A stretch of 64,000 nucleotides of DNA from Octopus sinensis (taxonomy: Eukaryota), in the NCBI RefSeq assembly GCF_006345805.1, contig NC_042997.1:183954001-184018000 (forward strand), read 5' to 3'. Below, in pieces: positions 20,319-56,300 of the stretch (position 1 is its first letter; each line of letters begins with the position of its first letter). A program made the translations under genes and the position numbers. The notes beneath the pieces were generated by a model. That model saw only the letters and a program-made list of their open reading frames with translations, was not told the DNA's origin and did no database searches.

Positions 20319-23300
20319 CTGAAGTTGTCTGTGTGTGGCAGGTTTGGTAGCCTTCAACTAACACTATCTACTCCAAGACCCTGCGGCGCAAGTTGACCAA
20401 AATTGAGAGTATGATAGAAGAAGGCTTGCTCTTCATTCCATAGAAGATAAAATTCAAATCGGATCATGTTAAGATCAAAAATTATTTACATCAAAAAGGT
20501 GCTTTTTTACTATGAAAATCCCTATTTTTTACGATTTTTTGACTGCTGTGTTGCCATTTTTTGGTGTATTTCAACCAGAAAAATGTTCACTTAAAGAGAA
20601 TAACAAGCTACATAATGCAAAATTTTTACTTTTCAAAAATTCCAATTCTAAAAGGTCGAAACAAACCCGAGCAATGCTGGGCGATACTACTAGTCTATGA
20701 TAAACAGTAATGATAAATGTATTACTAAAATCAATCAAAAACTCAATCTCACACTCCAAGTAATATAAAATTTCAAGCTTACTTATACTTTGTATAGTTG
20801 TATTTTCTTACAGCCATATGTTAGATATCTCTCTCTATGCCCTCACATATCTACTTTAGCTTCCCCTCCCAGCCACTCCAATTCCTCTCACCATCACTTG
20901 CTACATTCATGTCTTCCCCATCTCTAAGCATATCCCCTCACACTCTTATGGAACACATCTCTCTATCCTTTCTGTACTACTTAAACCCTGCGTTCTGTGA
21001 TCCCTGTTGGTAGGTCCCAATACATCTCTAAAGAAGCATTCTGTGAAAGAGTTTAAAAAAGTACTGACAATGTTTAGATTTGATATTTTCAGATTAGTAA
21101 CGTTCATTCTCTTTATTGTCTCTTGTAGGCAGCAACAAAAAGCACAAATAAGTGATTCTAAGGTAAGCCAGTGACTAATTTAAATTCATTTTCTTCATTT
21201 TTGAAACTGATATTTGTATGCTTATCGGCGAGCTGGGGTCGATATTATCAACTTAATCCCTTTGTCTGTCCTATCTTGCCCAGGATATTAATCGTCTGGA
21301 AGCCGTTCAGTGACGTGCAACCAAGAGAATACCCTCCATCAGGCATTAGCCATATTCTGAATGCCTTACTTCCCTGGGCATGGACACATTGAAACTCTGA
21401 CGTCTGGCAGCTGACTTGGCAGACACCCATAAAATTATTAACCATCTTACAAATTCTGAGCACCTTTTCAAACTCCATCTGTCTAACACCCGTGGACTTG
21501 TTTACAAAATCAGAATACAGCACAGCTCCCATGACTTTCAGTAACATTTCTTCAAACTAAGAGTTGCTGAAGCATGGAACAAACTGCCGACATCAGTTGT
21601 TAGTTGTTGGAGCACTGCATCCTTCAAAACTTCCATGCTTCCTGAGATTCGCCAACACTACACCTGATTTTCTCCCCTCCATACACATGCAAGCATGTAT
21701 CTGACTCATACACTGTTCACTTCCCAGACATTTGTACATTACTGCATATGCTTTATACGCACTTTTGACAAGTTATTATTATTAGGAAGTGATGAGAAAG
21801 ATTAGGTGAAAGGGAAAACAGTGAGAATAGAAGTATTGAAGAACATTCACAGCTTTTGATTTCTATAATTTTACAAAATTGAATGTGCTGTAAACAGTAT
21901 TTTATAGTAATATGTATTCTAACTTCTCTATTTACAGTTTGTTTCTCCAACTAGTGCTGTGTCTCCCATGATCACTTCTGACAACACCAATTTCTTTCAA
22001 CAATCATATTTAGAAAACCTTCTTACACGTCAAGCGAGTGAGGTTTTTGACCTTAAACAGCAGATGTGTCAGCTTACTACAGATCACAGATTGGCAATGA
22101 AGTTGGCTGAGGAACAAAAGCATTCAGAAATTAAGGAAGTGATGCAACAGCAGCATATAATGATGGAAGCATTTAAACATAAGCATTATATTCAAATTAA
22201 AGAAATGAAAAATGAATATGAACAGAATGATCAAGAAAAAGATGCGTTAATTCTAAACTTAAAAACAGAACTTAAGGAGAAAAAGAATCTTTTTGAAAAC
22301 CAGGTGGAATATTTTGTTTAGATATTGTTTTCTTAACATTTCTCTCTACTTTCCCTTTCACCTAATCTTTCAAATTTTAAAATTCTCAAAAAAAATATTC
22401 AGTCAATCTTAGAATGTATAATGTATTCTTAATTTAATATCCTAGAATGATAAGTTTAAAGATTTTGATATTGCAATATGTTTCTGTTGAGGGGAAACTG
22501 TTTCTGCAGCAAGCTGGCAGAAACGTTAGCACGCCGGGTGAAATGCTTAGCAGTATTTCATCTGCTGTTATGTTCTGAGTTCAAATTCCACCGAGGTTGA
22601 CTTTGCTTTTCATCCTTTCTGGGGTGATAAATTAAGTACTAGTTACGCACTGGGGTTGATGCCATCGACTTAATCCCTTTGTCTGTCCTTGTTTGTCCTC
22701 TCTATGTTTAGCCCCTTGTGGGCAATAAAGAAATAAGAAACTATTTTTAATGTACAAGAAAGAATTTAACATTTGGAAAGATATCTGGTAGTTATATCAG
22801 TTTGGATTAATTTACATTTTCTTTTTTTAAATTTTGACTCAGAGGAATATCTTCTAAGTTCTGATTTGTTTATCACGTGATTGTTGCCAGAGCAGCCACA
22901 ACTGGCTTCCGTGCCAGTGGCACGTAAAAGGGCACCATTCGAGCATGATCGTTACCAACGTCACCTTACTGGCACCTGTGCTGGTGGCATGTGTAAAAGG
23001 ATTTGAACGAGGTTGTTGCTAGTACCGCCTGACTGGCCCCTGTGCTTGTGGCATGTAAAAAGCACCCACTACACTCTCGGAGTGGTTGGTGTTAGAAAGG
23101 GCATCCAGCTGTAGAAACTCTGCCAAATCAAGATTGGAGCTTGGTGCAGCCATTTGGTTCGTCAGCCCTCAGTCAAAATCGTCCGACCCATGCTAGCATG
23201 GAAAGCGGACGTTAAACGATGATGATGATGATGAGCCTTTCCAGGGTGCCAAAATGGTATCTCTAGTCATTGCTCTCCTGGTCTGTACATCAATTGGTCA

Positions 23301-26300
23301 GTTGCCTTCCACATATTGAGTGATCCCAGTTAGTAGCAAAATACTTGTTGCATTCTAAGTTTGGTGGTGTGTTACTTCTGAAATACTATATTTCAGTGGT
23401 CTGTCTTTAGTGGCTGATTGAATTCTAAGATCTCATGTTTGCTTATCAATATTCTACAGGAGGCAGCGAACTGGCACAATTGTTAGCAAGCCTGAGAAAA
23501 TGTCTAGCAGCATCTTGTCCATCTGTACATCCAAAGTTCAGATACCACCAATGCTCTCTTTCTATTTTGATATTAGCTGGACTTTGTTGTTTCCATTGTT
23601 TTCTGTCTCTGGATTTCTTATTTATGTTGTCCTTGGAAACAGAACTTAAGAACATGTGTTTATAGAAGTTAAAATATTGGTTTCAAATTTTGGCACAAGG
23701 CCAATAATTTCAGGCAAGGGAGCAAGTCAATTACATCAGCCTCAATGTTAACTGGTACTTATTTTTTTGACCCTGAAAAGATCGCAGGCAAAGTTGACCT
23801 TGGCAGATTTTGAACTCAGAACATAAATTCACCCAGCATGCTAGTGATTCTGCCAGCTTGCCACCATTATAGAGGTTAAAATATTAAAGATTTATTTGAA
23901 TAAAAAAAATGTACCAATTGGTTTTAGGGGTAACATGTTTGGTTTCATGAAGCCTTTCCAAACCTTTTATGAAGATTTTTTGTTTGAAATTCTCACCTGA
24001 TAAACATATAGTAGAACTAGCAGTATCACCCGGCATTGCTTGGGTTTGTTTCGACCATTTAGAATTGGAATTTTTGAAAAGTAAAAATTGTGCATTATGT
24101 AGCTTGTTATTCTCTTTAAGTGAACATTTTTCTCGTTGAAATACACCGAAAGATGGCGACACAGCAGTAAAAAAATCGTAAAAAAATAGGGATTTTCATA
24201 GAAAAAAAAGCACCTTTTTGATGTAAATAATTTTTGGCGTTAACATGGTCTGATTTGAATTTTTTTTTCTACAGAAGGAAGAGCAAGCCTTCTATCATAC
24301 TCTCAATTTTGGACAACTTGCGCCGCAGGGTGTCGGAGGAGATAGCGTTAGTTGAAGGCTACCAAACCTGCCATACACAGACAACTTCAGCTTTATATAT
24401 ATAGATATACTGATTTGTAAATGGTCTACATAAATGACAGTATCTCATATTAAGCAGTTAAAAAATTGTAAAGGACTGGAGGCTAGCAGTTAGATGAATT
24501 AGCAGAAATGTTCCATTTTTATTATTTTGCAGATTTATTTTTGTTTTCAACTTGAAGCTATAATTTGTCTTTTCAGATAAGAGTTCTTAGTTGTGATACT
24601 GATGTACATATAAAAAGTCAAGGTGAAACTATTCACATTCTTCAACAACAATTAGAAACAGCTGAAATTGAAATTAAACAACTGAGTGAACAGTTAAAAA
24701 ACGCAAAGGATTCTTTTAAAGTTGAGATTTTGCAGAAGGATGAAGATATTTGGTGATTAACTTTGCTTTATTTTCAGCTTCTTTCATAGCATGGGAGAAA
24801 AGGAAAGCAAAATTTTACATTTCAATTTTATCATTAATTAGAAAAACTCCTGCTATCTACGATTTATTCCATGGTGCTCTATTGCCACTAATCCTGACTA
24901 TCTAGCACATATAAAATTCTGTTTATTTGTCAAAATGTTGGTGATCCCACTGCATCTTTTGTATATATATCTAATGTGCTTACTTAATATCCCATGTCAG
25001 AGTCCTGTATTCTCTCTTTACTACACATTGAACCAAGTCAATTCCCATCTAGCACCTGGAATTACTATTTGCAGTTAATTATTAGCATTTTATTGGCACT
25101 TTTCTCTTAACTTTTATGCCTTTAGATCCTAGAAGAGGATCTTCCAATGTTGTTGTTTAGCTCTAACTGTGACCATCCTAATTGTGACCATATATATCAG
25201 TTGTTATACTGACCAGTATCTCCATTTTTTAAGATGGCAAGCTGTAATTTGAAAGGGAGATTTGGTTCTTATTCTGCAATGAGAATTCAACCATTTTCTA
25301 AAATGTTCTTTCTAATTTAAAAAAATTACTAGCATTGCACGGGTTTGTTTTGACCCTTTAGAATTGGAATTTTTGAAAAGTAAAAATTTTGCATTATGTA
25401 GCTTGTTATTCTCTTTAAGTGAACATTTTTCTCGTTGAAATACATAAAAAAATGGCGACACAGTAGTAAAAAAATCATAAAAAATAGGGATTTTCATAGA
25501 AAAAAAATTCACCTTTTTGATGTAAATAATTTTTGGTCTTAACATGGTCTGATTTGAATTTTATCTTCTATGGTCCGATTTGAATTTTTCTTCTACAGAA
25601 TGAAGAGCAAACCTTCTATCATACTCTCAATTTTGGTCAACTTGCGCCGCAGGGTCTCGGAAGAGATAGTGTTAGTTGAAGGCTACCAAACCTGCCGCAC
25701 ACAGACAACTTCAGCTTTATATATATATAGATTTTGTTTTTCTTGTTTAATCCCATACCAGGAATTGGTCCAGCAAACTTATAATCAAAGGCATTCCTGA
25801 TATGACCATACCATTTTATATTTTTTTATCAATAACTACGAGCTGTACGAGCCATGTAGAGGAACGCTGTTAGTAAGGTGAGGGTTGGCAACGAGTACAG
25901 TGAAGAATTCCGGGTAGAGGTTGGGGTCCACCAAGGTTCAGTCCTCAGCCCCCTCCTATTTATCATAGTCCTCCAAGCAATAACGGAGGAATTCAAGACA
26001 GGTTGCCCCTGGGAGCTCCTCTATGCTGATGACCTTGCCCTAATTACTGAGTCACTATCAGAACTGGAGGAGAGGTTTCAGGTGTGGAAGCAAGGATTAG
26101 AATTGAAGGGCCTTAGAGTCAACCTAGCTAAAACCAAAGTTCTAATAAGTAGGAAGGTAGACAAATCACAAACATCCTCAGGTAGATGGCCCTGCTCGAT
26201 CTGTAGGAAAGCTGTAGGTAGAAAATCTATAAGATGCACCAAGTGTAAGCTATGGACACATAAGAGGTGCAGCAATGTCAAAGGAAGGCTAACTAGGAAA

Positions 26301-29300
26301 ATAGTTTTTCTTTGTGGCAGATGCTCAGGAGCAATAAACACTGAAAATGTGCAGAGACCAACTTCTACCACATTCCAGGGAGAAAAACTAGAAGTAGTTG
26401 ATAGCTTCCGCTACCTAGGTAACCAAGTCAGTAGCGGGGGTGGGTGTGCTGAAAGTGTAACTGCTAGAGTAAGAATAGCTTGGGCAAAGTTCAGAGAGCT
26501 CTTACCTCTGCTGGTGACAAAAGGCCTCTCGCTCAGAGTAAAAGGCAGATTGTATGACGCATGTGTACGAACAGCTATGCTACATGGCAGTGAAACATGG
26601 GCCGTGACTGCTGATGATATGCGTAAGCTTGCAAGAAATGAAGCCAGTATGCTCCAATGGATGTGTAATGTCAGTGTTCATACTCGACAGAGTGTAAGTA
26701 CTTTGAGAGAAAAGTTGGACCTAAGAAGCATCAGTTGTGGTGTGCAAGAGAGACGTTTGCGCTGGTATGGTCATGTGGCGAGAATGGATGAAGATAGTTG
26801 TGTGAAAAAGTGCCACACCCTAGCGGTTGAGGGAACCTGTGGAAGAGGTAGACCCAGGAAAACCTGGGATGAGGTGGTGAAGCACGACCTTCGAACTTTA
26901 GGTCTCGCCGAGGAAATGACTAGAGACCGAGACCTTTGGAAGTATGCTGTGCGTGAGAAGACCTGGCAGGACAAGTGAGGCCATAATCCCGTGGCCTATA
27001 CCTGTGATGTAGCCAGCCCACTTATGCATTCCTTTCCTTCTTGGGACACAAAACTCCACTTGTGAAGACCTGTTGAGGCAAGTGAAAATCAAAATCAAAA
27101 TCGTAATCTGTCAACATCAATGGAATTTGTAGCTGTGATACCAGTGCCAGTGGCACATAAGAGAACCATCTGAACGTGGCTGTAGCCAGCGCCACCCAAC
27201 TGGCATCCGTGCCGGTGGCACGTAAAAAGCACCATCCGACTGTGGCCGTTGTCAGCTTCGTCTGGTCCCCATGCTGGTGGCACATAAAAAGCACCATCCA
27301 ATCGTGGGCGTTTGCCAGCCTTGTCTGGCACCTGTGCTGGTGGCACGTAAAAAGCACCCACTACACTCATGGAGTGGTTGGCGTTAGGAAGGGCATCCAG
27401 CTGTAGAAACACTGCCAGATCAGACTGGGCCTGGTGCAGCCTTCTGGCTTCCCAGACCCCAGTTGAACCGTCCAACCCATGCCAGAATGGAAAGCGGACG
27501 TTAAACGATGATGATGATGAACTACATTGACCAATCTATCCTGTTTTGGAAATTTTAAATGGTAGTATCTGATTTAAGGGAGATTTGGCTGCTATTTGTA
27601 GAATGTCAAAGAACTATCTAGAGGCTTCCTTGTTGGTTTCTCACTGGTCAGTTCTGAATGAGCAGATAATAATCCCAGGCCTTCCAGCTATTATCAGCTG
27701 ATATTTTTCTGGGTATTTTGTATCTACAAATATAATATTTATTGTGTCTCTCTGTTTGAGGGCAATTTAGTTGGCTGTTCCTCTCAAAATTTCAAGCAAC
27801 CATTACCATATATGATCGTGTGGGTGTTAGGGTGGTGAATTGGCAGAACCAGTCAAATGACTGAAGATCTGCAACGTGATATTTATTTATGTCCCTTGCA
27901 TTCTGAGTTCAAATCTCATCAAGGTTGACTTTATCTTTTTTTTGTTTTTCTGTGGCCAATAAAATAGGTACCAGTCAAGTATTGAAGTAAATATAGACTA
28001 TAATCTTCCCTTAAACTTTGTAGTCCATGTTTAACAGCTATAAGTTTGTACTTTGTTAATTTTTAAATATTTCATTTTCTTTATTTTTCTTTTCAGTTTT
28101 AAAAGCAGGGAAATCAAAAACTTAAATCAGCAGATACAACAGTTAAAGACATATATTGGTGACACTGAGAATGTGCCAAAATCTATAGAAATATTGGAAA
28201 CAGATAAAGAAGTGCTGCAAAGCAGAATAAAAGTATATACTCTATTTTACTCTTTTACTTGTTTCAGTCATTTGACTGCGGCCATGCTGGAGCACCGCCT
28301 TTAATCGAGCAACTCGACCCCGGGACTTATTCTTTTGTAAGCCCAGTACTTATTCTATCGGTCTCTTTTTGCCGAACCGCTAAGTAACAGGGACATAAAC
28401 ACACCAGCATCAGTTGTCAAGCAATGCTAGGAGGACAAACACAGACACACAAACACACACACGCACATATATATATACATATATACGACAGGCTTCTTTC
28501 AGTTTCCGTCTACCAAATCCACTCACAAGGCTTTGGTCGGCCCGAGGCTATAGTAGAAGACACTTGCCCAAGGTGCCATGCAGTGGGACTGAACCCAGAA
28601 CCATGTGGTCGGTAAACAAGCTACTTATCACGCAGCCACTCCTATGCCTATTCATATATGTATATTCAAGGTGCACATATACCGATTATGATGATGATAA
28701 TACCCTATTTCTACCAATTTCTCTATTTACTAACATAGTATATTGTTATATAACATCCATCCATCAGTTCATTCATCCATCTACCTATCCATCCATCTTC
28801 TCTGCCCACTGTTCTTGGCAAGGTCATTGGAGTAGAGTCCTCAGGTACCTCCTTCATAGAGTTCTATCAGATGCAACTGTCATTAAATTTTCCAGCAGGA
28901 TTCCCTAGTGTGACCAACTGCGATTTTGGATATTATCCAATCATCCTGTTCTTGATTTACTCCTAGGTCTCCTGCCAGTTGGCTATGCTTAAAGAATCTA
29001 TCTTACGATTCTTTCCTGCAACATTCTAATCACATGTCTGTAGTGTTGGAACAATGACCACTCAATGTGGAGAGGTAGCAGCTTTACCAGGAGTGACTCC
29101 CTGATCTTGGAGTTATCCTGTTGAGTAACATTACACTAGAAATCCTTCAAATGAGCTCCATTTTGGATGCTTGTATTCACAGTTGTACTCTTTCAGTCAG
29201 TACCCAAATTTATGACCCTAGGTGAGGATTGGCATGAAAACTGAATTGATAATAGCAAGTTTGGCTTTTTTTATCAACCGCTCCTATTAATAGATATACA

Positions 29301-32300
29301 AGTTTATTCTTTTATAATATTCAGCAAACATTCTGTTCCAGTTCATGAAATGTGCCACTGCATTCATTAATTGAAATATAGCAATTTGTTTGTTGGTTTG
29401 TTTTTCTCACAGGTAAATATTTGGAAAAGTAGACTAAAACTAAAATATTTTAGAAATATTAAATTTCTAAATATCTCAGAGAGATATAAGCAGTGGTGGA
29501 ATGATAGAGCAGTTGTATATTGTCAACTTAATGTGACAGTCCCATGAAGGGAATCACACCACCGCTATTTAGCCCTAGGAAGCATCAACGCTTCCTGTCG
29601 GCCTTGACACATTTCCTGTGTCCTTATGTTTACAAAGGGGAGACAAGCACCCCCATCCAGCTAAGCCTGCATCCAGAGACATGTTTCTGAGTCTTTGCTC
29701 GTCATCAGTCTGGAGTAGCCTGGCTTGCTAGCTGGCTGCAGATACTTGTCTAGAACTTGTAAATATATATAATTTCAGGGAAGTAAATTCACTGATCGCA
29801 AAAAAATAGAAATATTAAATTTCTAAATATCTCAGAGAAATATAAGCAGTGATGGAACGACAGAGCAGTTGTATACTGTCAACTTAACGTGACAGTATAC
29901 AACTGCTCTAAATTATTTTACTTATACATTTAATATTAAACATCACTTTAATCAATACATCTTGTTTAATGTGAAGAACAGATAGAGTGCAAATTAGTAA
30001 ACATGTATAAGTAATTAAGTTAGCTGCTTGCCAAGTGCACTGGGTACTTTTTTTGTGACACTGGCATGAGTGAAGGCTGTTAAGTAACTTGCAAGACAAG
30101 GGAAAAGAAGGCTCTGAGTAGGAGGTGATTTTATACCTGATGTTGAGAGGCTAAAATATGAGAGAGGTGACAAGATATATATTGCTACCTTGTATTAAAT
30201 AGGAGTGGGTGTGAGTAGCTGGAAAGAAGATACAGATGTTGGTGAAGAGGTGAAAAGGAAATCAGTGAGGATTGTGACTTCAGACAGTATTGAGCTGGGA
30301 AGGATGTTCTCATCCCTGGTTAATGATCATTCAACAACTGATGCTGGAATCAGAAGGAGTTAGACACCATAAAATTATTAACCATCTTACAAACAATAAC
30401 TCTGAGCACCTTTTCAAACTCCATCTGTCTAACACCCATGGACATGTTTACAAAGTCAGAAAACAGCAGAGCTCCCATGACTTTCGGAAACATTTTTTCA
30501 CGCTAAGAGTTGCTGAAGCATGGAACAAACTGCCGGCATCAGTTGTTAGTTGTCGGAGCACTGTATCCTTCAAAACTTCCATGCTTCCTGAGATTCGCCA
30601 ACACTATACCTGATTTTCTCCCCTCCATACTCACGCAAGCATGTATCTGACTCATACACTGTTCACTTTCCAGTCATTTGTACATTACTGCATATGCTTT
30701 ATACGCACTTTTGACAAGTTGTGGTGCACCTGAGCACTGTATACAATAATTTCATTATTATTATTATATATGATGCACATGAAATTCTATTAATCCTTTA
30801 GCATTAAAACTGGCCATACCTGGCCCAAATATTCTACCTGTTTTATGTTCACACTGGCCAGATCTGGCCTCTCACATCTATCCTACCATGTCATTCTAAA
30901 AATAAGCAATCGCATCATCAAAATCTTGATGTTATGAGATAATCATGATTATTTTAAAAGCATGTGAATAAACATGCATTACATTTGACAGAGTAATCTG
31001 AATGCTGAATATTATACCAAGTCAGTGACTCAAACAGAAATTTGTCTTGTTTTAAGGCAGTGAGCTGGCAGAATTGTTAGCACGCTGGGCGAAATGCTTA
31101 GCGGTATTTCGTCTGCTGCTACGTTCTGAGTTCAAATGCTGCCGAGGTTGACTTTGCCTTTCATCCTTTAGGGGTCGATTAAATAAGTACCAGTTACGCA
31201 CTGGGGTCGATATAATCGACTTAATCCGTCTGTCTGTCCTTGTTTGTCTCCTCTGTGTTTAGCCCCTTGTGGGTAGTAAAGAAATAGGTATTTTGTCTGC
31301 CGCGATGTTCTGAGTTCAAATGTTGCCGAGGTTGACTTTGCCTTTCATCCTTTCGGGGTCAATAAATTAATTACCAGTTACGCACTGGGGTCGATGTAAT
31401 CGACTTAATCCCTTTGTCTGTCCTTGTTTGTTCCCTCTATGTTTAGCCCCTTGTGGGCAATAAATAAATAAGAAATTTGTCTTATTTAAAATGCTACATA
31501 AATACAGTTCTTAAGCATTTAATACTGTTTTTTTGCCTGTTTTATTCTATAGATCCTTACAAAAGAGAAAGAGCATTTACAATCAAGCAATGATCTTTTG
31601 AAGATTCAGTTAACATCTATTAATGAAATCTTAACTTTACAAGAAGCAGAACTATCACAGGTTAGTTATTGTAATTCATCATTGTTACAAGATACACTTT
31701 TGTTTATCTCTAATTTTTAATGTGTTTATTAAAAACTAGCACTATGACCCGGCGTTGCATGCATATACAGCTGCGTGCATGCACACATACACGCGAGTAC
31801 TGTTCAAATCTCCGACCAATCACATACAGCTAGCTGGCATTCAATTGGCGTATGAAGTTTCAGGCATTTTGATTGAGTTTTGGATAGAAAATTCACAAAA
31901 AAGTCACTTCTATTGATTTTTTAATGGCTTTGCTGGGTGAATGGGGAAATGTAAAGATGTGCACGACCACCCTTAGATAGTTTTGAATTACCATAGAAAG
32001 TGCGAGCCCTCTAACTGAAAAATTGTGGATTTGTATAAAGGACACACACACAGACATTTTGCCGTTTATATATAGAGAAATATATAAATGTTCTATCTAA
32101 TTCATCATAGATATTTTTTGCTACATTTTTGTGAGTATACACCTATTTATGTGCTTTTGTGTGTTGAATATCTATTTTGTGGCAGAATATAGATTGTCAA
32201 TTGGCTGGAGGAAGGGGCACCATAATACTGTTCTGACACCTTCCAGTAGGTATTTAGTCTAAGATGTCCAAAGGAGCGAAAATGGCAGCTGTCATGCTTT

Positions 32301-35300: not shown

Positions 35301-38300
35301 ATATTTGTACTTCTTTGATATTTGTATACTGTTTGAGAATGGGTGTGGGTAGAGAAAATTTTAGGGAAAGTGGAAGAATGAGGTGCTGTACAGTACAACC
35401 AAGAGAATACCCACCATCAGGCATCTGCCATCTGCCATATTCTGAACACCTTACTTCCCTGGGCATGGACACATTGAAACTCCGACGTCTGGCAGCTGAC
35501 TTGGCAGACACCCATAAAATTATCAACCATCGTACAAACAATAACTCTGAGCACCTTTTCAAACTCCATCTATCTAACACCCGTGGACATATTTACAAAG
35601 TCAGAAAACAGCACAGCTCCCATGACTTTTGGAAACATTTTTTCACGCTAAGAGTTGCTGAAGCATGGAACAAACTGCCGGCATCAGTTGTTAATTGTCG
35701 GAGCTCTGCATTCTTCAAAACTTCCATGCTTCCTGAGATTCGCCAACACTACACCTGATTTTCTCCCCTCCATACACACGCAAGCATGTAAGTGACTCAT
35801 ACACTGTTCACTTTCCAGTCATTTGTACATTACTGCATATGCTTTATACACACTTTTTGACAAGTTGTGCACCTGAGCACTATATACAATAATTTCATTA
35901 TTATTATAGCTCTCTCTCTCTCTCTTCCTTCCCCCCTCTCTCTTTCCTCATGCTTCCACCTGATAACCCCCCCCCCCCCCAATCCCTAACCCTTTATAAA
36001 GCAGTGTTCGATTTATCTCGTCCTTCTTCTCGATTCTACATCTTGCTGACAAAACACTGACTCGAAAAATGACCAGCTAAGCGAATTTAACTTACAACCT
36101 GTCATTCATATTCATTTTTTAAGCGTTGATTCGTAACCCTAAATCCCGTTTCTCTATTATTTGTTTCGCCATCTTGTATGCATGGCTTCCTGTCTGTCAT
36201 GCATTTTAAATTCCTCCTTTAATTTCAGTGTCATCCCGTTGTTATTCCATCCCCAGAATTCACTACAATATTCTACCTCTCTCCTATTTATATTATGTTT
36301 TAATCGAACCCCGAAGTTTCTAGATGTTCAGTAATTTCTGTCGCAGAAAATTCCCTACGTATTAACTTAAAACCTGTTGTTCCTTGGAGGTGACCCCGCC
36401 CTCCCACCCATCTACCAGAACCGGAAGTTTCTGTTTTCTATCTTTCAGGTGACCCCGCCCTCCCACCCCTCTACCAGAACCGGAAGTTTCTGTTTTCTAT
36501 CTTTCTTGACCCCCCCCGCACCCCTATGTAGGGTTTATTGTGATCATATAGCGCAAAAACTTTGAAATTTATGCAGGTTGTAGTCTAGAGTCTCAGTATG
36601 ATATCTGGCAAATGCAAGCTTTCTTTTCAGGTACAGAACACTGCGGCCCCTCATCCCAGGGTCTCAGAGGCCCACACCTCCCACACCCTCAGGGTAGGCA
36701 CCCTCAACGTTGGCACATTGAAAGGTAGGTCTGGCGAGATAGTCGAGATGCTTGAACGGAGACGTGTTGATGTATGTTGTATGCAAGAAATAAGGTGGAG
36801 AGGAGGATCTGCTAGGGTCCTCACAGGCAAGGGACACAGGTACAAGATTTTCTGGGCAGGGAACACTGACGGGGTTGGTGGCGTGGGTATAATTATCGCT
36901 GAGAAATGGATAGATAGAGTAATTGAGGTAATCAGAGTAAGTGACAGAATACTTAAGATTAGAATAGTGCTTCATAATAGATTAGCAACCATTATATCGG
37001 CCTATGCCCCTCAGCCAGGGCTACCCGATGGACAGAAAGACAGTTTCTATGACACCCTACTGCAGACCACCTCATCGACGAACGACAGGGACCTTCTCTT
37101 TGTGGCTGGTGATTTCAATGGGCATGTTGGACGACATGCTGGGGGCTTCCATGGCGTACATGGAGGCTACGGTTATGGTTCCCGCAACGAGGAGGGAACC
37201 AGGCTGCTGGAGTTCTGCGATGCGAATAGTCTTATGGTCTGCAACACTAACTTCAGGAAACCAACAAGCCACCTGGTCACCTACCGATCGGGCCGGCATA
37301 CTAGCCAAATCGACTACATCCTTGCCAGAAAAAGGGAAAGATGGCTGCTTAAAAATGCCAAAACCTTCCCAGGCGAAGAATGCACCCCACAACATAGACT
37401 GGTAGTTAGTGACTTTAGGATCAGGACTAAGAGGGCGACTAGAAGACGACCAACATGGAGAAGAAGGGTCTGGAAGCTTAAAGCCCCTGCGAATGGACAG
37501 AGATTTAGAGATATGTTACTTGAAGCCTTGACGAAGTGGAAGGGGGTATAGCTACACATGGGGTAGAAGACAACTGGACGTTTCTGAGGGACAACCTGCT
37601 GAAAGCCGCTGACCAGATCTGTGGCTGGTGCAAAGTCCCCTTAAGACCCAAAATAACGTGGTGGTGGAACAATATTGTTGACAGGGCTATTAGACAAAAG
37701 AAACAGGCTTGGAAGGCCTGGAAGAACGGTGGTAGCAGGGAAGGGTATCAGACTGCCAGAAGGGAAGCTAGGAGACAGGTCTATCTAGCCAGAGGGGAAG
37801 CAGATAAGAGAAAATTTGCCAATGTCCTGCGCCGTGAGGATGAAAGACTTGAGGTATTTCGTGTTGCAAGACAGTGTGTGAGAGAGAATCGTGATGTGGT
37901 AGGAGAGAAATGTGTTCGCATGGAGGATGGTTCACTTGCGCTAAATGAGGATGCAAAGAGAGAAGCTTGGAGACGCCACTATGAAAGGTTACTGAATGAG
38001 GAAAATGAATGGGATAAAGAGAGTCTGCCGAATGTTGACCCTACAGAGGGACCAGCTATCCGAGTTGATAGTTCCGTGGTAGCTAAGGCAATTAGAAGCA
38101 TGAAGACAGGGAAAGCCCCAGGCCCATCAGGAATTACTGCAGAGATGCTCAAAATATCTGGCAGTGTCGGCTATAACCTAGTCACCCGTATAGTCAACCA
38201 GGTGATACACGAAGGAGTCATACCCAATGACTGGTGCAGCAGCATACTAGTCAACTGCTACAAAGGTAAAGGTGATGCCCTAGATACAAATAATTACAGA

Positions 38301-41300
38301 GGTATCAAGCTGTTGGATCAAGTAATGAAGGTTACGGAGAGGGTCATAGCCCAACTAATTAGAGAGAGAGTTAGTTTAGATGAGATGCAGTTTGGGTTCG
38401 TGCCAGGAAAAAGTACCACTGATGCTATATTCCTGGTAAGGCAGCTGCAGGAGAAATACCTAGCCAAAGATAAGCCCCTGTACCTAGCTTTCGTTGACAT
38501 GGAGAAAGCTTTTGATAGGGTCCCCCGATCCCTTATCTGGTGGTCAATGAGGAAACTAGGGATAGATGAATGGCTGGTGAGGACTGTGCAAGCCATGTAC
38601 AGAGATGCCGTAAGTAAGGTTAGGGTTGGCAACATGTACACAGAAGAATTCAAAGTAGAGGTTGGGGTCCACCAGGGTTCAGTACTCAGCCCCCTCCTAT
38701 TTATCATAGTACTCCAGGCAATTACGGAGGAATTCAAGACAGGCTGTCCCTGGGAGCTCCTCTACGCTGACGACCTTGCTCTTATTGCTGAGTCACTATC
38801 AGAACTGGAGGAGAAGTTCCAGGTGTGGAAGGAGGGTTTAGAATCAAGGGGCCTTAGAGTCAACCTAGCTAAAACCAAAGTACTAATAAGTAGAAAGGTA
38901 GACAATCCACAAATATCTTCAGGAAGATGGCCCTGCTCGATCTGTAGAAAAGGTGTAGGTAGAAACTCTATAAGATGTACCCAGTGTAAGCTATGGACAC
39001 ATAAGAGGTGCAGCAATGTCAAAGGTAGGCTAACTGGGAAGATAGTTTTTGTATGTGGCAGATGCTCGGGAGCATTAACCTCCGAAAATCTGCAGAAAAC
39101 AACTTCCGTCACTTTCCAGGGGGAAAAACTAGAAGTAGTTGATAGCTTCCGTTATCTAGGTGACCAAGTCAGTAGTGGGGGTGGGTGCGCTGAAAGTGTA
39201 ACTGCTAGAATAAGAATAGCCTGGGCAAAGTTTAGGGAGCTCTTACCTCTGCTGGTGACTAAAGGCCTCTCGCTCAGAGTAAAAGGCAGACTGTATGATG
39301 CGTGTGTACGAACAGCCATGCTACATGGCAGCGAAACATGGGCTGTGACTGCTGAGGACATGCGTAAGCTCGTGAGGAATGAAGCCAGTATGCTCCGATG
39401 GATGTGTAATGTCAGTGTACATACTCGACAGAGCGTTAGCACCTTGAGAGAAATGTTGTACCTAAGAAGCATCAGTTGTGGTGTGCAAGAGAGACGATTG
39501 CGCTGGTATGGTCATGTGGCGAGAATGGATGAAGATAGGTGTGTGAGAAAGTGCCAATCCCTAGCAGTTGAGGGAACCCGTGGAAGAGGTAGACCCAGGA
39601 AAACCTGGGACGAGGTGGTGAAGCACGACCTTCGAACTTTAGGCCTCACTGAGGAAATGACCAGAGACCGAGACCTTTGGAAATATTCTGTACGTGAGAA
39701 GACCAGGCAGGACAAGTGAGCCCAGCCCACTTATGAATGCCTTTCCTCCCTTGGACACAAAGACCGGTTGAGGCAAGCGAAGTCGATATAGAACCTCATC
39801 CGACGACAGACACCCATCCCAACCCCCCATGCTTGCGAAGACATGTTGGGGCAAGCGAAATCGAAATCGAAACCGAATTGAACCAGCCAGGATCCCTGGC
39901 CTGGTGGTACGTAAAAAGCACTATCCGACTCGGGGCCGTGGCACGTAAAATACTCCAATGCGACCGTACGACAGGCACCCATGCCAACCCCCTTTGCTTG
40001 TGAAGACATGTTGGGGCAAGCGAAATCGAAATCGAATTGAACCAGCCAGGATCCCTGGTCTGGTGGTACGTAAAGCACTATCCGACTCGTGGCCGTGGCA
40101 CGTAAAATACTCCAATGCGACCGTACGACAGGCACCCTTGCCAACCCCCTTTGCTTGTGAAGACATGTTGGGGCAAGCGAAATCGAAATCGAATTGAACC
40201 AGCCAGTATCCCTGGTCTGGTGGTACGTAAAGCACTATCCGACTCGTGGCCGTGGCACGTAAAATACTCCAATGCGACCGTACGACAGGCACCCTTGCCA
40301 ACCCCCTTTGCTTGTGAAGACATGTTGGGGCAAGCGAAATCGAAATCGAATTGAACAGCCAGGATCCCTGGTTGGTGGTACGTAAAAAGCACTATCCGAC
40401 TCGTGGCCGATGCCAGCACCGCCTCGACTGGCTTCCGTGCCGGTGGCACATAAAATACACCAATCTGACCGTGGCCGTTGCCAGCCCCGCCTGCACCTGT
40501 GCAGGTGGCACGTAAAAAGCACCACTACACTCACGGAGTGGTTGGCGTTAGGAAGGGCATCCAGCTGTAGAAACATTGCCAAATTAGACTGGAGCCTGGT
40601 GCAGCCTTCTGGCTTCCCAGAACCCCGGTCGAACCGTCCAACCCATGCTAGCATGGAGAACGGACGTTAAACGACGATGATGATGATGATGATTATAATT
40701 TATAAGACAGACTGTTTGGACAAGGTTGTATCTAACATACAAGAGGAAAGAGCAAGCAAATATATAAATATGCAACCAAACGCATACCCTCCATCAGACA
40801 CCTACCATACTCTGAGCGCCTTGTTTCCCTGGGCATGGATTCACTGAAGCTCCGGCGTCTGGCGATGGACTTGGTAAACACCCACAAAGTTATCAACCAC
40901 CTCACCAACAACAACACTGAACACCTTTTTGATCTCCATGTGTCCAACACACGTGGACATGCCTACAAAGTCAGAAAACACAGCTCCCATGACTTTCGGA
41001 AACATTTTTTCACGCTCAGAGTTGCTGAAGCATGGAACAAACTGCCTGCGTCAGTTGTTGACTGCCATGACACTGCATCCTTTAAGGCCCTCATGCTTTC
41101 TGAAATCCGCCGAAACTACACCTGATTGTTCCCCTTCCATACCCATACACATACGTGTATGTCATGACTCATGCACTGTTCTTTTCTTGATGCTTGTACA
41201 TTACCCTATGTACTAAACATACACTTTAGATGAGTTGTAGTGCACCTGAGCACTGTACACAATGTTTTATTATTATTACCATTATTATAACCTGCATATG

Positions 41301-53300: not shown

Positions 53301-56300
53301 AGAGAAAACTCACATTGTGGTGTCTAAGTCAAGTGCTTTTCTTAGTGTGGGCTATAGCACACGCACACACACACACACACAAAAAGGGAGCGATCTGATT
53401 CACTCACGCTATCACTCTAATTTCTACGACTTTCTCTTTGCAAGTTTGCAACGAATAAAGTGAAACTATTTCTATAACACGAGAGAAGTGTACCTTAAAC
53501 TACTACTAAAAAAAAAAACACAGCAAACAGAAACAAATAAATACATAACGATTTACTCCTCACACAATTTCTTCAATTAGAGTTTACCCATGATTTTTCA
53601 AAGTACTTCCATTGGGTCATGCCATACAAAATTTCTTTCAATTTTACCCCCAATTAAGACAAAATTCGAGAAAACTCAATATTTTAACATTTCACTCCGA
53701 AAGCATTGATGTACATGTGTGCGTGCGTGAGTGTGTGTGTGTCATTCCTCACACACGCATACACATACATATATGACAGTGACAAACACAAACGTTTCAA
53801 ACAACTACATACAAACACGTGTGTGTTTGTTATTAGTAAAAAACGCGCCAAACACAACTCACTTCTCATTCCAACACATTTTCAAAGACACACGGACGGT
53901 CGAATTGCTATAACAATACAGAAAAGGTAAATTGGTTTTTATTTTACTTTCTGTCGTTAAATTTTGGTAGTATTAATTGGCGAGCCAAGCTTCTTTCAGT
54001 ATATATTTACACATACATAAATATATACACATATTCTGTATATATTTTATTATATAATATTATATATAGATATATGTATATATAATTGCAGTATGAAACA
54101 GTTTTTATGTATAAACAGACGACACTTATATATAGTTATTAATAAATGTATGCATCCGTTTAACCCTTTCGTTACCAAACCGCCCGAAACTGACCGAAAA
54201 AAATTTTGGTTAATGTGACCAAGCCGCCCCAAACCGCCCGAATTTACCTATTCATATTTAAATGAGAATATCAGAGTAAATCTCTTTAGTACATTCGTGA
54301 AAACACGTATTATACTTCGTAAACAGTTCAACTACAGTTTTGTACAAAAATCGAAGTGTAATTTTAATTCCGTGAATTATGGGAGATTTTTTTTCGAAAT
54401 TTGTTCCTATTGTGTTTTCAAAATTTGTAATTCTGACAAGAAATGGATACGAATTTCATTATATCAAGCAGCGAGTCAGAATTCGAAGGATTTTCTACTG
54501 AAGACCTTCATAAATCTAACTCTATGACTGAAAAAAAAAAGCATGTGGTATTTGATAATGAATCTGATGTTTCATTTTCCGAAAGTGAAAACAGTGAATC
54601 CGAGAGCTCCGACAGTGATAAAGAAAATGAATTGGCACCTGAATGGAGTGAAAATTTAAAAATTGTTTCTCTCGGTGATTTTTCTGAAGAAACTGGACCA
54701 AGCCACAGACTTTCCCAGAAGAGTAAAGCCTTAGACTATTTCTTTTTACTTTTTCGAATTAGCCCATTTGAAATCATTACGGCGGAAACGAACTGTTACG
54801 CTAAACATAAACAAAGCGAAAGAAAGGATAGTTTGTTATTTCCCACAACCTTAAATGAAATTAAGGCCTATTTTGCCATAAATATTATTATGGGTATCAG
54901 AAAGTTACCCAGAATAACAAATTCTATCGTAAAATTTTGTTGTATACCCAATTGAATATTAGCTAATTTTCTATAGCGATGTTTGAACAAAATTTTAATA
55001 ATTTTATATATTGTTGAATTTACCTGTATCTACCTGCAATTAGAGTCACTTTGTGACAAAAATTATAGTATAGAATTGGTTGAGAACATTTCATTAAATT
55101 CGCTTCCAAAATTCATGTTAATATATTGATAAATAAAAAAGTTATAGTTGTTTAATGAAACCAGACTAAATTTATGATTACGTTAGAAATTAATTGAAAC
55201 ACATAAGGGGTGTATTTTGGTCAGAAATATAGCAACGAAAGGGTTAAGAAAAACCAAAAAATATTTTATTCTTTATAAATGTTGTGTTCAAAATAACATT
55301 TTCTTTTAAGAATGTGTATATAACAAAGTATGTGTATATAACTACGTGGCTTATATCTTTATATATAAGAGTGAAGTTGTGTGTCTGTCTCCTACAATTT
55401 AGATTCGTAACTACTCCCACATTTTGCGGTGCAGTTTAACCAAAAGCGGGTATCTTATAGTCATGATTCATATCGAGCCCTTCTGGGTATTAGCGCGCGT
55501 CTACGATGAGTCTACGATTTAAAAAAAATTTACCATCATATTTTTCCATTTTAATGCATTTTTTCGCTATTATATAAGGGAAGTAACTCTCTAAAAATAT
55601 CTACGATGTGTCAACGATTTAAAAAAAAAATTTACCTTAATTTTTTTTTCAATTTTTAATGCATGTTTTTGCTATTTTTTGGCTATAACTCTCTAAAAAT
55701 GCTTATATAGTTATTTCCCTTACAAACCCGAGCAACGCCGGGCGATATTGCTAGTATATATATAAAATAAAATGAGCATTGAAACACCTCAGAGTGTAGC
55801 TACAAAAAAGTAAAATTAATGACATTGTTCAATTTGGTTTTCCTATATTATGATGCTAGTGTTTGATAAGAGGAAGATTTGTCTGCTATTTCTAACAATC
55901 CAAGTGGCCACTCAGTTGCTCCTCAGTTAACCCTAGATCACAAATAAGACGGATATCTCTATATCTATAAACGGCAAAATGTCTGTGTGTGTGTCCTTCA
56001 TACAAATCCACAATTTTTCAGTTAGAGGGCTCGCACTTTCTATGGTCATTCAAAACCGTCCAAGGGTGGTCGTGCACATCTTTACATTTCCCCAGTCACC
56101 CTGCAAAGCCATTAAAAAATCAATAGAAGTGACTTTTTTGTGAATTTTCTATCGAAAACCCAATCAAAATGCCCGAAACTTGATATGCCAATTGAATGCC
56201 AGCTAGCTGTATGTGATTGGTTGAAGATTTGGACAGTACTTGCGTGTATGTGCGCACGCACACAGCTGTATATGCATGCACTAGCACTATGACCTGGGTC

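Follow-up and report, generated by a model that had tools for sequence, protein, structure and literature searches.

A dispersed hammerhead-type repeat of Octopus sinensis without an open reading frame carries clear footprints of Penelope-type mobilization

An intron of the octopus gene CCHCR1 harbors, in antisense orientation, a 1.25-unit insertion (29452-29909) of a dispersed 356-nt repeat family without an open reading frame (ORF). The family adds a new cephalopod member to the non-LTR retrozymes and bears clear footprints of Penelope-type mobilization; it likely spreads by borrowing a Penelope-type enzyme. In mechanistic terms, the repeat probably belongs to the non-LTR retrozyme type: it carries a type I hammerhead ribozyme, as predicted from sequence, and a Penelope-like reverse transcriptase (RT)-endonuclease likely inserts it in trans. 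Coordinates refer to the window, the 64,000-nt stretch of Octopus sinensis contig NC_042997.1 analyzed here, and unit positions u1-u356 run along its minus strand from 29896 down to 29541. The insertion and its surroundings consist of the following features.

28107-28241, plus strand: CCHCR1 upstream exon (approximate; tblastn of protein P0001)
29442-29451, plus strand: left target-site duplication, 10 bp (10-12 by register), 9/10 identical to 29910-29919
29451-29505, minus strand: the 'tail' (u36-u90), between the short and the long 3' end
29452-29896, minus strand: long arm, the whole 356-nt unit (u1-u356 = 29896-29541) plus u1-u90, stopping at the long 3' end
29541-29896, minus strand: monomer, 356 nt, 42% GC, with predicted strong self-pairing
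29628-29763, minus strand: predicted long rod, an extension of stem I that would juxtapose both ends of the cleaved monomer (fold prediction)
29672-29714, minus strand: type I hammerhead motif, canonical, with a predicted cut between 29678 and 29677
29875-29896, minus strand: palindromic hairpin u1-22, inside which the two arms of the window copy join
29890-29909, plus strand: short inverted arm, 13-20 nt, with u35 (the short 3' end) as its terminus and a junction that is ambiguous inside the palindrome
29910-29919, plus strand: right target-site duplication, paired with 29442-29451
about 31553-31717, plus strand: CCHCR1 downstream exon (approximate; tblastn of protein P0001)

The anatomy of the window copy largely follows what a first-pass annotation of this DNA had proposed. 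The 356-nt unit is indeed bounded by 90-nt direct repeats (29451-29540 and 29807-29896), which are spaced 356 nt apart and are 93% identical, with six differences, all transitions. A perfect 20-bp fold-back was likewise located correctly at 29862-29909 (arms 29862-29881 and 29890-29909; fold z -10.7), but it is not a feature of the unit, as had been supposed; it is the product of the short inverted second arm of this insertion. The long arm measures 446 nt and has its 3' end at u90, while the folds predicted for the monomer have z scores of -5.2 (linear) and -5.5 (circular). In runs X15 and X16 position 29913 is an A, which removes the single mismatch and renders the target-site duplication perfect. 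No ORF of at least 90 aa overlaps the unit at this locus, no phage match was found, and no empty-site allele occurs among the matches listed. A tRNA-derived SINE was rejected for want of a tRNA head, ARAGORN having reported 0 genes in 29000-30300, where Pol III boxes were judged by eye.

The host gene was recognized from exon 21923-22318, which matches the Octopus coiled-coil alpha-helical rod protein 1 (PF07111). Because CCHCR1 lies on the plus strand and has exons on either side of the insertion, the ribozyme is antisense within an intron, as had been claimed. Introns of the gene also contain long LINE-type endonuclease-/reverse transcriptase-like ORFs (36589-39719 and 25860-26978; type assigned by eye), and a transposase fragment (PF13843, E 6.6e-7) lies at 54437-54955. 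Contig X17, which derives from another organism and whose flanks differ by 4-6%, crosses the left junction; this single contig suggests that the insertion is old and shared with that species. Such sharing, together with the intronic position, could speak for a functional ribozyme or hairpin acting on CCHCR1. This is nevertheless very improbable, since the ribozyme is antisense to the pre-mRNA and the copy is indistinguishable from others, the divergence between its repeats (6.7%) resembling the family median of 6.6%. The locus also holds a single ribozyme, and thus would not release a monomer alone and is unlikely to be a source of circles itself. The window locus is an ordinary dead copy.

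The family is large. A genome search with the unit returned 3,442 first-look candidates, 40 of which were scored, giving 61 matches at 81-100%. An exact 22-mer of the unit has 536 genome matches against 0 for its control and is carried by 13 of 34 independently chosen segments, which leads to an estimate of about 1,400 segments, a floor in that older subfamilies are under-sampled. A 31-32-nt core pattern gave 135 exact matches compared with 0 for the reversed control, and family copies lie a median of 7.6% off the column majority. The proposal of a 1.25-mer insertion from a retrozyme-like cephalopod family is supported. A sister family with units of 355-358 nt (3,310 candidates; L156-L185, L197, L199 and L201-L204) is colinear with the first along the whole unit, at 54-58% identity and with several hairpins common to both. 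Despite this divergence, unit length (351-361 nt), strong predicted self-pairing and the ribozyme stems are kept across both families. Predicted circular folds have z scores of -3.5 to -9.3 in seven distinct family units and of -2.2 to -4.3 in four sister units (25 shuffles each).

Both families form head-to-tail tandems of themselves, seamless and of one to three units. Tandem multimers, whose search had been recommended, were found: in the two families together, 15 matches contain two intact cores, a trimer among them, and one motif alone retrieved 15 exact dimer matches. The longest array, of about 3.2 units, belongs to the sister family (L202). Segments longer than one unit make up 13 of 107, the median segment being 213 nt, and several subfamilies contain seamless 2-3-mers. 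Within a single insertion, tandem units resemble one another more than they resemble copies at other loci in 44 of 46 comparisons, and the arms do so in 46 of 48. At L204 (1837-2449), a 12.3-copy, 50-bp tandem array of the 5' part of the sister hammerhead is joined to a two-unit insertion, each copy ending about 4 nt short of the predicted cut site; it could stem from a cleaved RNA whose 3' end was copied repeatedly, or be a local minisatellite. Upstream of the ribozyme, at a distance of about 50 nt, the unit has a conserved TATA-like stretch (u123-134; about 29763-29774 of the window, minus strand), a putative internal promoter. Marks of A-to-I editing in the template were not seen (A>G 0.018 vs T>C 0.026).

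The hammerhead itself (minus strand, 29714-29672) has the layout originally described: the full catalytic core, a stem I of 6 bp, a stem II of 3 bp with a closing C-A, and a stem III that is palindromic. In 56 segments picked without reference to the core, the core columns are retained in 53-56 copies. An alignment made with MAFFT misplaced stem III between the families, and stem pairs were therefore counted by motif parsing, which handled 69 of 85 segments and dropped 16. Stems I and II covary: their cells are paired in 565 of 621 cases, compared with 480 +/- 9 (maximum 506) in 1,000 shuffles that ignore the relatedness of copies, and double changes in these stems separate subfamilies as well as families. 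Of the 69 parsed segments, 59 have a stem III that is perfectly palindromic, in five different forms (8 nt in the sister family), with predicted self-duplex energies between -4.6 and -14.9 kcal/mol. This fits the earlier suggestion that the palindrome suits the ribozyme to act as a dimer.

Two details of that annotation have to be revised. The C-A pair had been regarded as one CpG transition away from C-G. Position 11.1, however, is A in 53 of 56 family copies and in 27 of 29 sister copies and is never G, which makes C-A the family state and not a decayed C-G pair. At position 10.1 the family has C in 39 copies and T in 16; together with the CpA forms seen at the base that follows, this is consistent with CpG decay from an ancestral C. 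The motif had also been called 'minimal'. As described in PMC4209133, a canonical type I hammerhead has a helix I of 6 bp, a helix II of about 4 bp and a short palindromic helix III, while the minimal form, found in the pLTRs of autonomous Penelope-like elements, has a helix II of 7-8 bp, a helix I of 4-5 bp and G10.1-C11.1. The octopus motif, with a helix II of 3 bp plus C-A, agrees with the former and departs from the latter; by these definitions the predicted ribozyme is a canonical, dimer-type type I hammerhead. Its C-A at 10.1-11.1, unlike the usual G-C, may weaken cleavage. The recommended comparison with Rfam Hammerhead_1 gave no match in three scans, where the only hit was Hammerhead_3 at E 1.7, far under the cut-off, and none rose above chance.

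Evidence for the mode of insertion comes from segment ends. The 3' ends are clustered in two regions, about u20-38 and about u83-98 (some 55 nt apart), while 5' ends are scattered, indicative of 5' truncation. From the 22-mer list, 80 loci were drawn in order of position; 38 of them have two arms in head-to-head orientation, and none is tail to tail. One arm has the short end and the other the long end in 29 of the 30 two-armed loci with both ends canonical (p=2.9e-8), the eight with a non-canonical end being excluded from this count. The pairing holds in 30 of 32 loci of a partly overlapping set chosen partly by similarity. The sister family uses the same two 3' ends and has mixed arms in 12/12 cases, among 18 two-armed loci. 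Outside microsatellites, target duplications of at least 9 nt (mostly 10-13) accompany 12 of 18 loci with two arms and 5 of 27 with one arm, compared with 3.5% of shuffled pairs. Targets are AT-rich or microsatellite, with microsatellite flanks at 34 of 79 loci. The Penelope insertion signature that had been claimed is thus present in the form of two 3' ends, head-to-head arms (an inverted 5' copy), 5' truncation, partial tandems, an AT-rich target and target duplications. In the unbiased set, u1 is the 5' terminus of five segments. A 5'-end pile-up at u162-163 was discarded, as it was mostly lost with subfamily queries.

These footprints can be accommodated by the following scheme. Transcription of a multi-unit locus, or read-through, would yield an RNA longer than one unit, in which two hammerheads would pair via the palindromic stem III and excise a monomer. 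The monomer might then be closed into a circle, the least certain step, to which we give slightly below an even chance. A Penelope-type protein acting as a dimer would then place a nick in each strand of the target, with a spacing of about 10-12 nt; priming from one nick would occur at the long site (u~90), and from its partner at the short site (u~30-35). Each cDNA would be extended past the cut site in the 5' direction, and microhomology would join the two head to head. For the window copy, a long arm of 446 nt and a short arm of 13-20 nt would have been copied, meeting in the u1-22 palindrome.

In this scheme the template must span the cut site and would therefore be either an uncleaved multimer or a re-closed circle. 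The circle is favored by the recurrence of seamless copies longer than one unit despite heavy truncation, and by the conservation of length, folding and ribozyme across both families. It is disfavored by the 5' ends, which show no significant pile-up at the cut (11/66 in u220-234; other bins 0-19%) and hence no clear trace of cleavage in vivo, and by a lizard Penelope element that needs no cleavage. Family contigs with joints that go back 350 nt occur in four putative RNA runs. As runs of unrecorded kind and genomic tandems have the same joints, these are uninformative on circles or expression; a ligated circle junction is seamless and indistinguishable in contigs from a genomic tandem.

The multimer alternative deserves serious weight, even though we would not quite bet on it: Penelope machinery may mobilize uncleaved, linear multi-unit transcripts, with a hammerhead that is weak or used at some other step and a circle that is unneeded. 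The lizard element inserts unprocessed RNA in vitro, its ribozyme being dispensable (PMC11167929), 88 of 136 segments in a partly selected set span the cut site, and of nine predicted Xenopus dimers, eight remained uncleaved (bioRxiv 10.64898/2026.07.22.740005). However, linear copying at a median of 213 nt should shrink arrays with each round, whereas seamless 2-3-mers recur, and it would leave the conservation of unit length, self-pairing and ribozyme stems between families of 54-58% identity to be accounted for.

The enzyme donor was sought among the Penelope-like elements of the octopus genome, which contains 5,029 GIY-YIG candidates, 150 of them scored, and intact RT + GIY-YIG ORFs of 775-781 aa. 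A cysteine-rich linker, a feature named for Neptune and Nematis (PMC8557442), suggests from sequence that these ORFs are of the Neptune type. The commonest intact family (L061:574-4277 and L065) encodes a 781-aa RT + GIY-YIG ORF overlapped by a second, upstream ORF of 479 aa that has no Pfam match over the cut-off; its 3' region carries a U3-A8 hammerhead variant whose stem III palindrome is the same as that of the window copy.

No sequence of the unit was detectable by BLAST or profile in the 3' regions of the sampled Penelope families (50 loci around GIY-YIG matches); unit matches at these loci are separate insertions of the two short families only. Conversely, a Penelope-protein match lies within about 1.5 kb of 4 of 121 unit loci and of 0 of 53 further loci. 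The unit forms the terminal repeat of an RT + GIY-YIG ORF at 0 of these 174 loci, the four nearby matches being otherwise arranged, and a unit with no attached ORF, as first proposed, is supported. Two loci, L007 and L095, were dismissed as terminal-repeat arrangements upon extension, because the intervening sequence was unrelated or the orientation opposite; L014, another locus with a nearby match, was assessed by coordinates only. An ORF-bearing upstream body behind a loose end upstream of the ribozyme was also rejected; the loose end had 0 genome matches and resembles the upstream sequence of an older subfamily.

These results bear on whether the unit is instead an orphan pLTR of an autonomous Penelope element, unsampled or extinct, which we consider improbable. 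The anatomy is fully of the pLTR type, the GIY-YIG candidates scored are only 150 of 5,029, and Xenopus retrozymes are related to pLTRs (bioRxiv 10.64898/2026.07.22.740005). On the other hand, the units join head to tail with themselves and have no ORF at any locus examined, the two sister families are colinear over the entire unit, and the ribozyme is canonical, while the sampled ORF-bearing elements carry other variants, including the U3-A8 core.

Insertion in trans by a Penelope-like enzyme remains the preferred reading. It has against it the lack of shared sequence with the sampled Penelope 3' regions, the lack of an Rfam hammerhead, the C-A pair and the missing long arrays. A bolder extension, which we consider rather unlikely, is an octopus superfamily of ~355-nt circular ribozyme RNAs that would evolve as whole units without a pLTR parent and be copied by a Penelope dimer from both nicks, with one subunit per start site. 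If this were true, the Penelope rule of a tail at one end would reflect an asymmetry that is obligate for the dimer and that could be read from thousands of insertions.

The closest known relatives in kind are the metazoan non-LTR retrozymes described in PMC7229834, such as those with 350-390-bp units in mussel and 330/350-bp units in axolotl. Like these, the octopus family has a canonical type I hammerhead with palindromic stem III in an ORF-less unit of ~355 nt, GC under 50%, strong self-pairing and target duplications longer than 4 bp. Its 356 nt and 42% GC lie within the retrozyme range (150-450 bp, GC under 50%, no ORF), the high self-pairing of the monomer is predicted by folding, and two or more ribozymes in tandem occur at the 15 two-core matches across the families, the window locus having one. 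The mismatch at the base of stem II, C-A here, is U-U in axolotl Amex2, which cleaves weakly alone (PMC7229834). The differences lie in organization and evidence. The octopus copies are mostly dispersed and truncated to <1.3 units, while those of PMC7229834 form arrays; inverted arms and two start sites go unmentioned in the main text of that paper ('inverted' occurs 0 times); and its retrozymes have demonstrated cleavage and circles, whereas the octopus ribozyme is predicted from sequence. Among titles, no report of a cephalopod or octopus hammerhead or retrozyme was found, though the supplement of PMC7229834 may list one, and the word 'ribozyme' is absent from a 2026 Octopus repeat annotation (PMC13282606).

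Penelope elements have been described as forming partial tandems, with a 5' copy in inverted orientation and a single-ended tail (PMC8557442, PMC3846280). In vitro, a Penelope protein for which a dimer is predicted nicks each strand of AT-rich DNA and extends it, initiating at two internal positions that mark the borders of the tail (PMC11167929). The octopus family shares the partial tandems, the inverted 5' copy and the single-ended tail with the pLTRs of endonuclease-bearing Penelope elements, as described in PMC3846280, PMC8557442, PMC11167929 and PMC4209133, together with AT-rich and microsatellite targets and a palindrome at the inverted junction; its duplications measure 10-13 bp compared with 8-10 bp. 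Unlike these pLTRs, it has no ORF, its tail is about 55 nt instead of 30-40, and its hammerhead is canonical instead of minimal.

The enzyme that spreads animal retrozymes was left as a proposal in PMC7229834, and a role for Penelope later received support from homology in frogs, where Xenopus retrozymes were proposed to be non-autonomous Penelope derivatives (Li, Clavereau, Pollet 2026, bioRxiv 10.64898/2026.07.22.740005). Penelope dependence is thus proposed for both the Xenopus and the octopus repeats, on different grounds. The Xenopus evidence, as given in the available text of that preprint, is drawn from vertebrates and consists of co-occurrence and homology to pLTRs, and neither molluscs nor insertion anatomy feature in it; the octopus evidence is the insertion footprint, pLTR homology not having been found in the sampled families. 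In the octopus, a canonical retrozyme-type unit carries the Penelope integration footprint directly, and the near-strict arm rule (29/30; 12/12 in the sister family) makes the twin-priming model testable with the existing in-vitro Penelope system.
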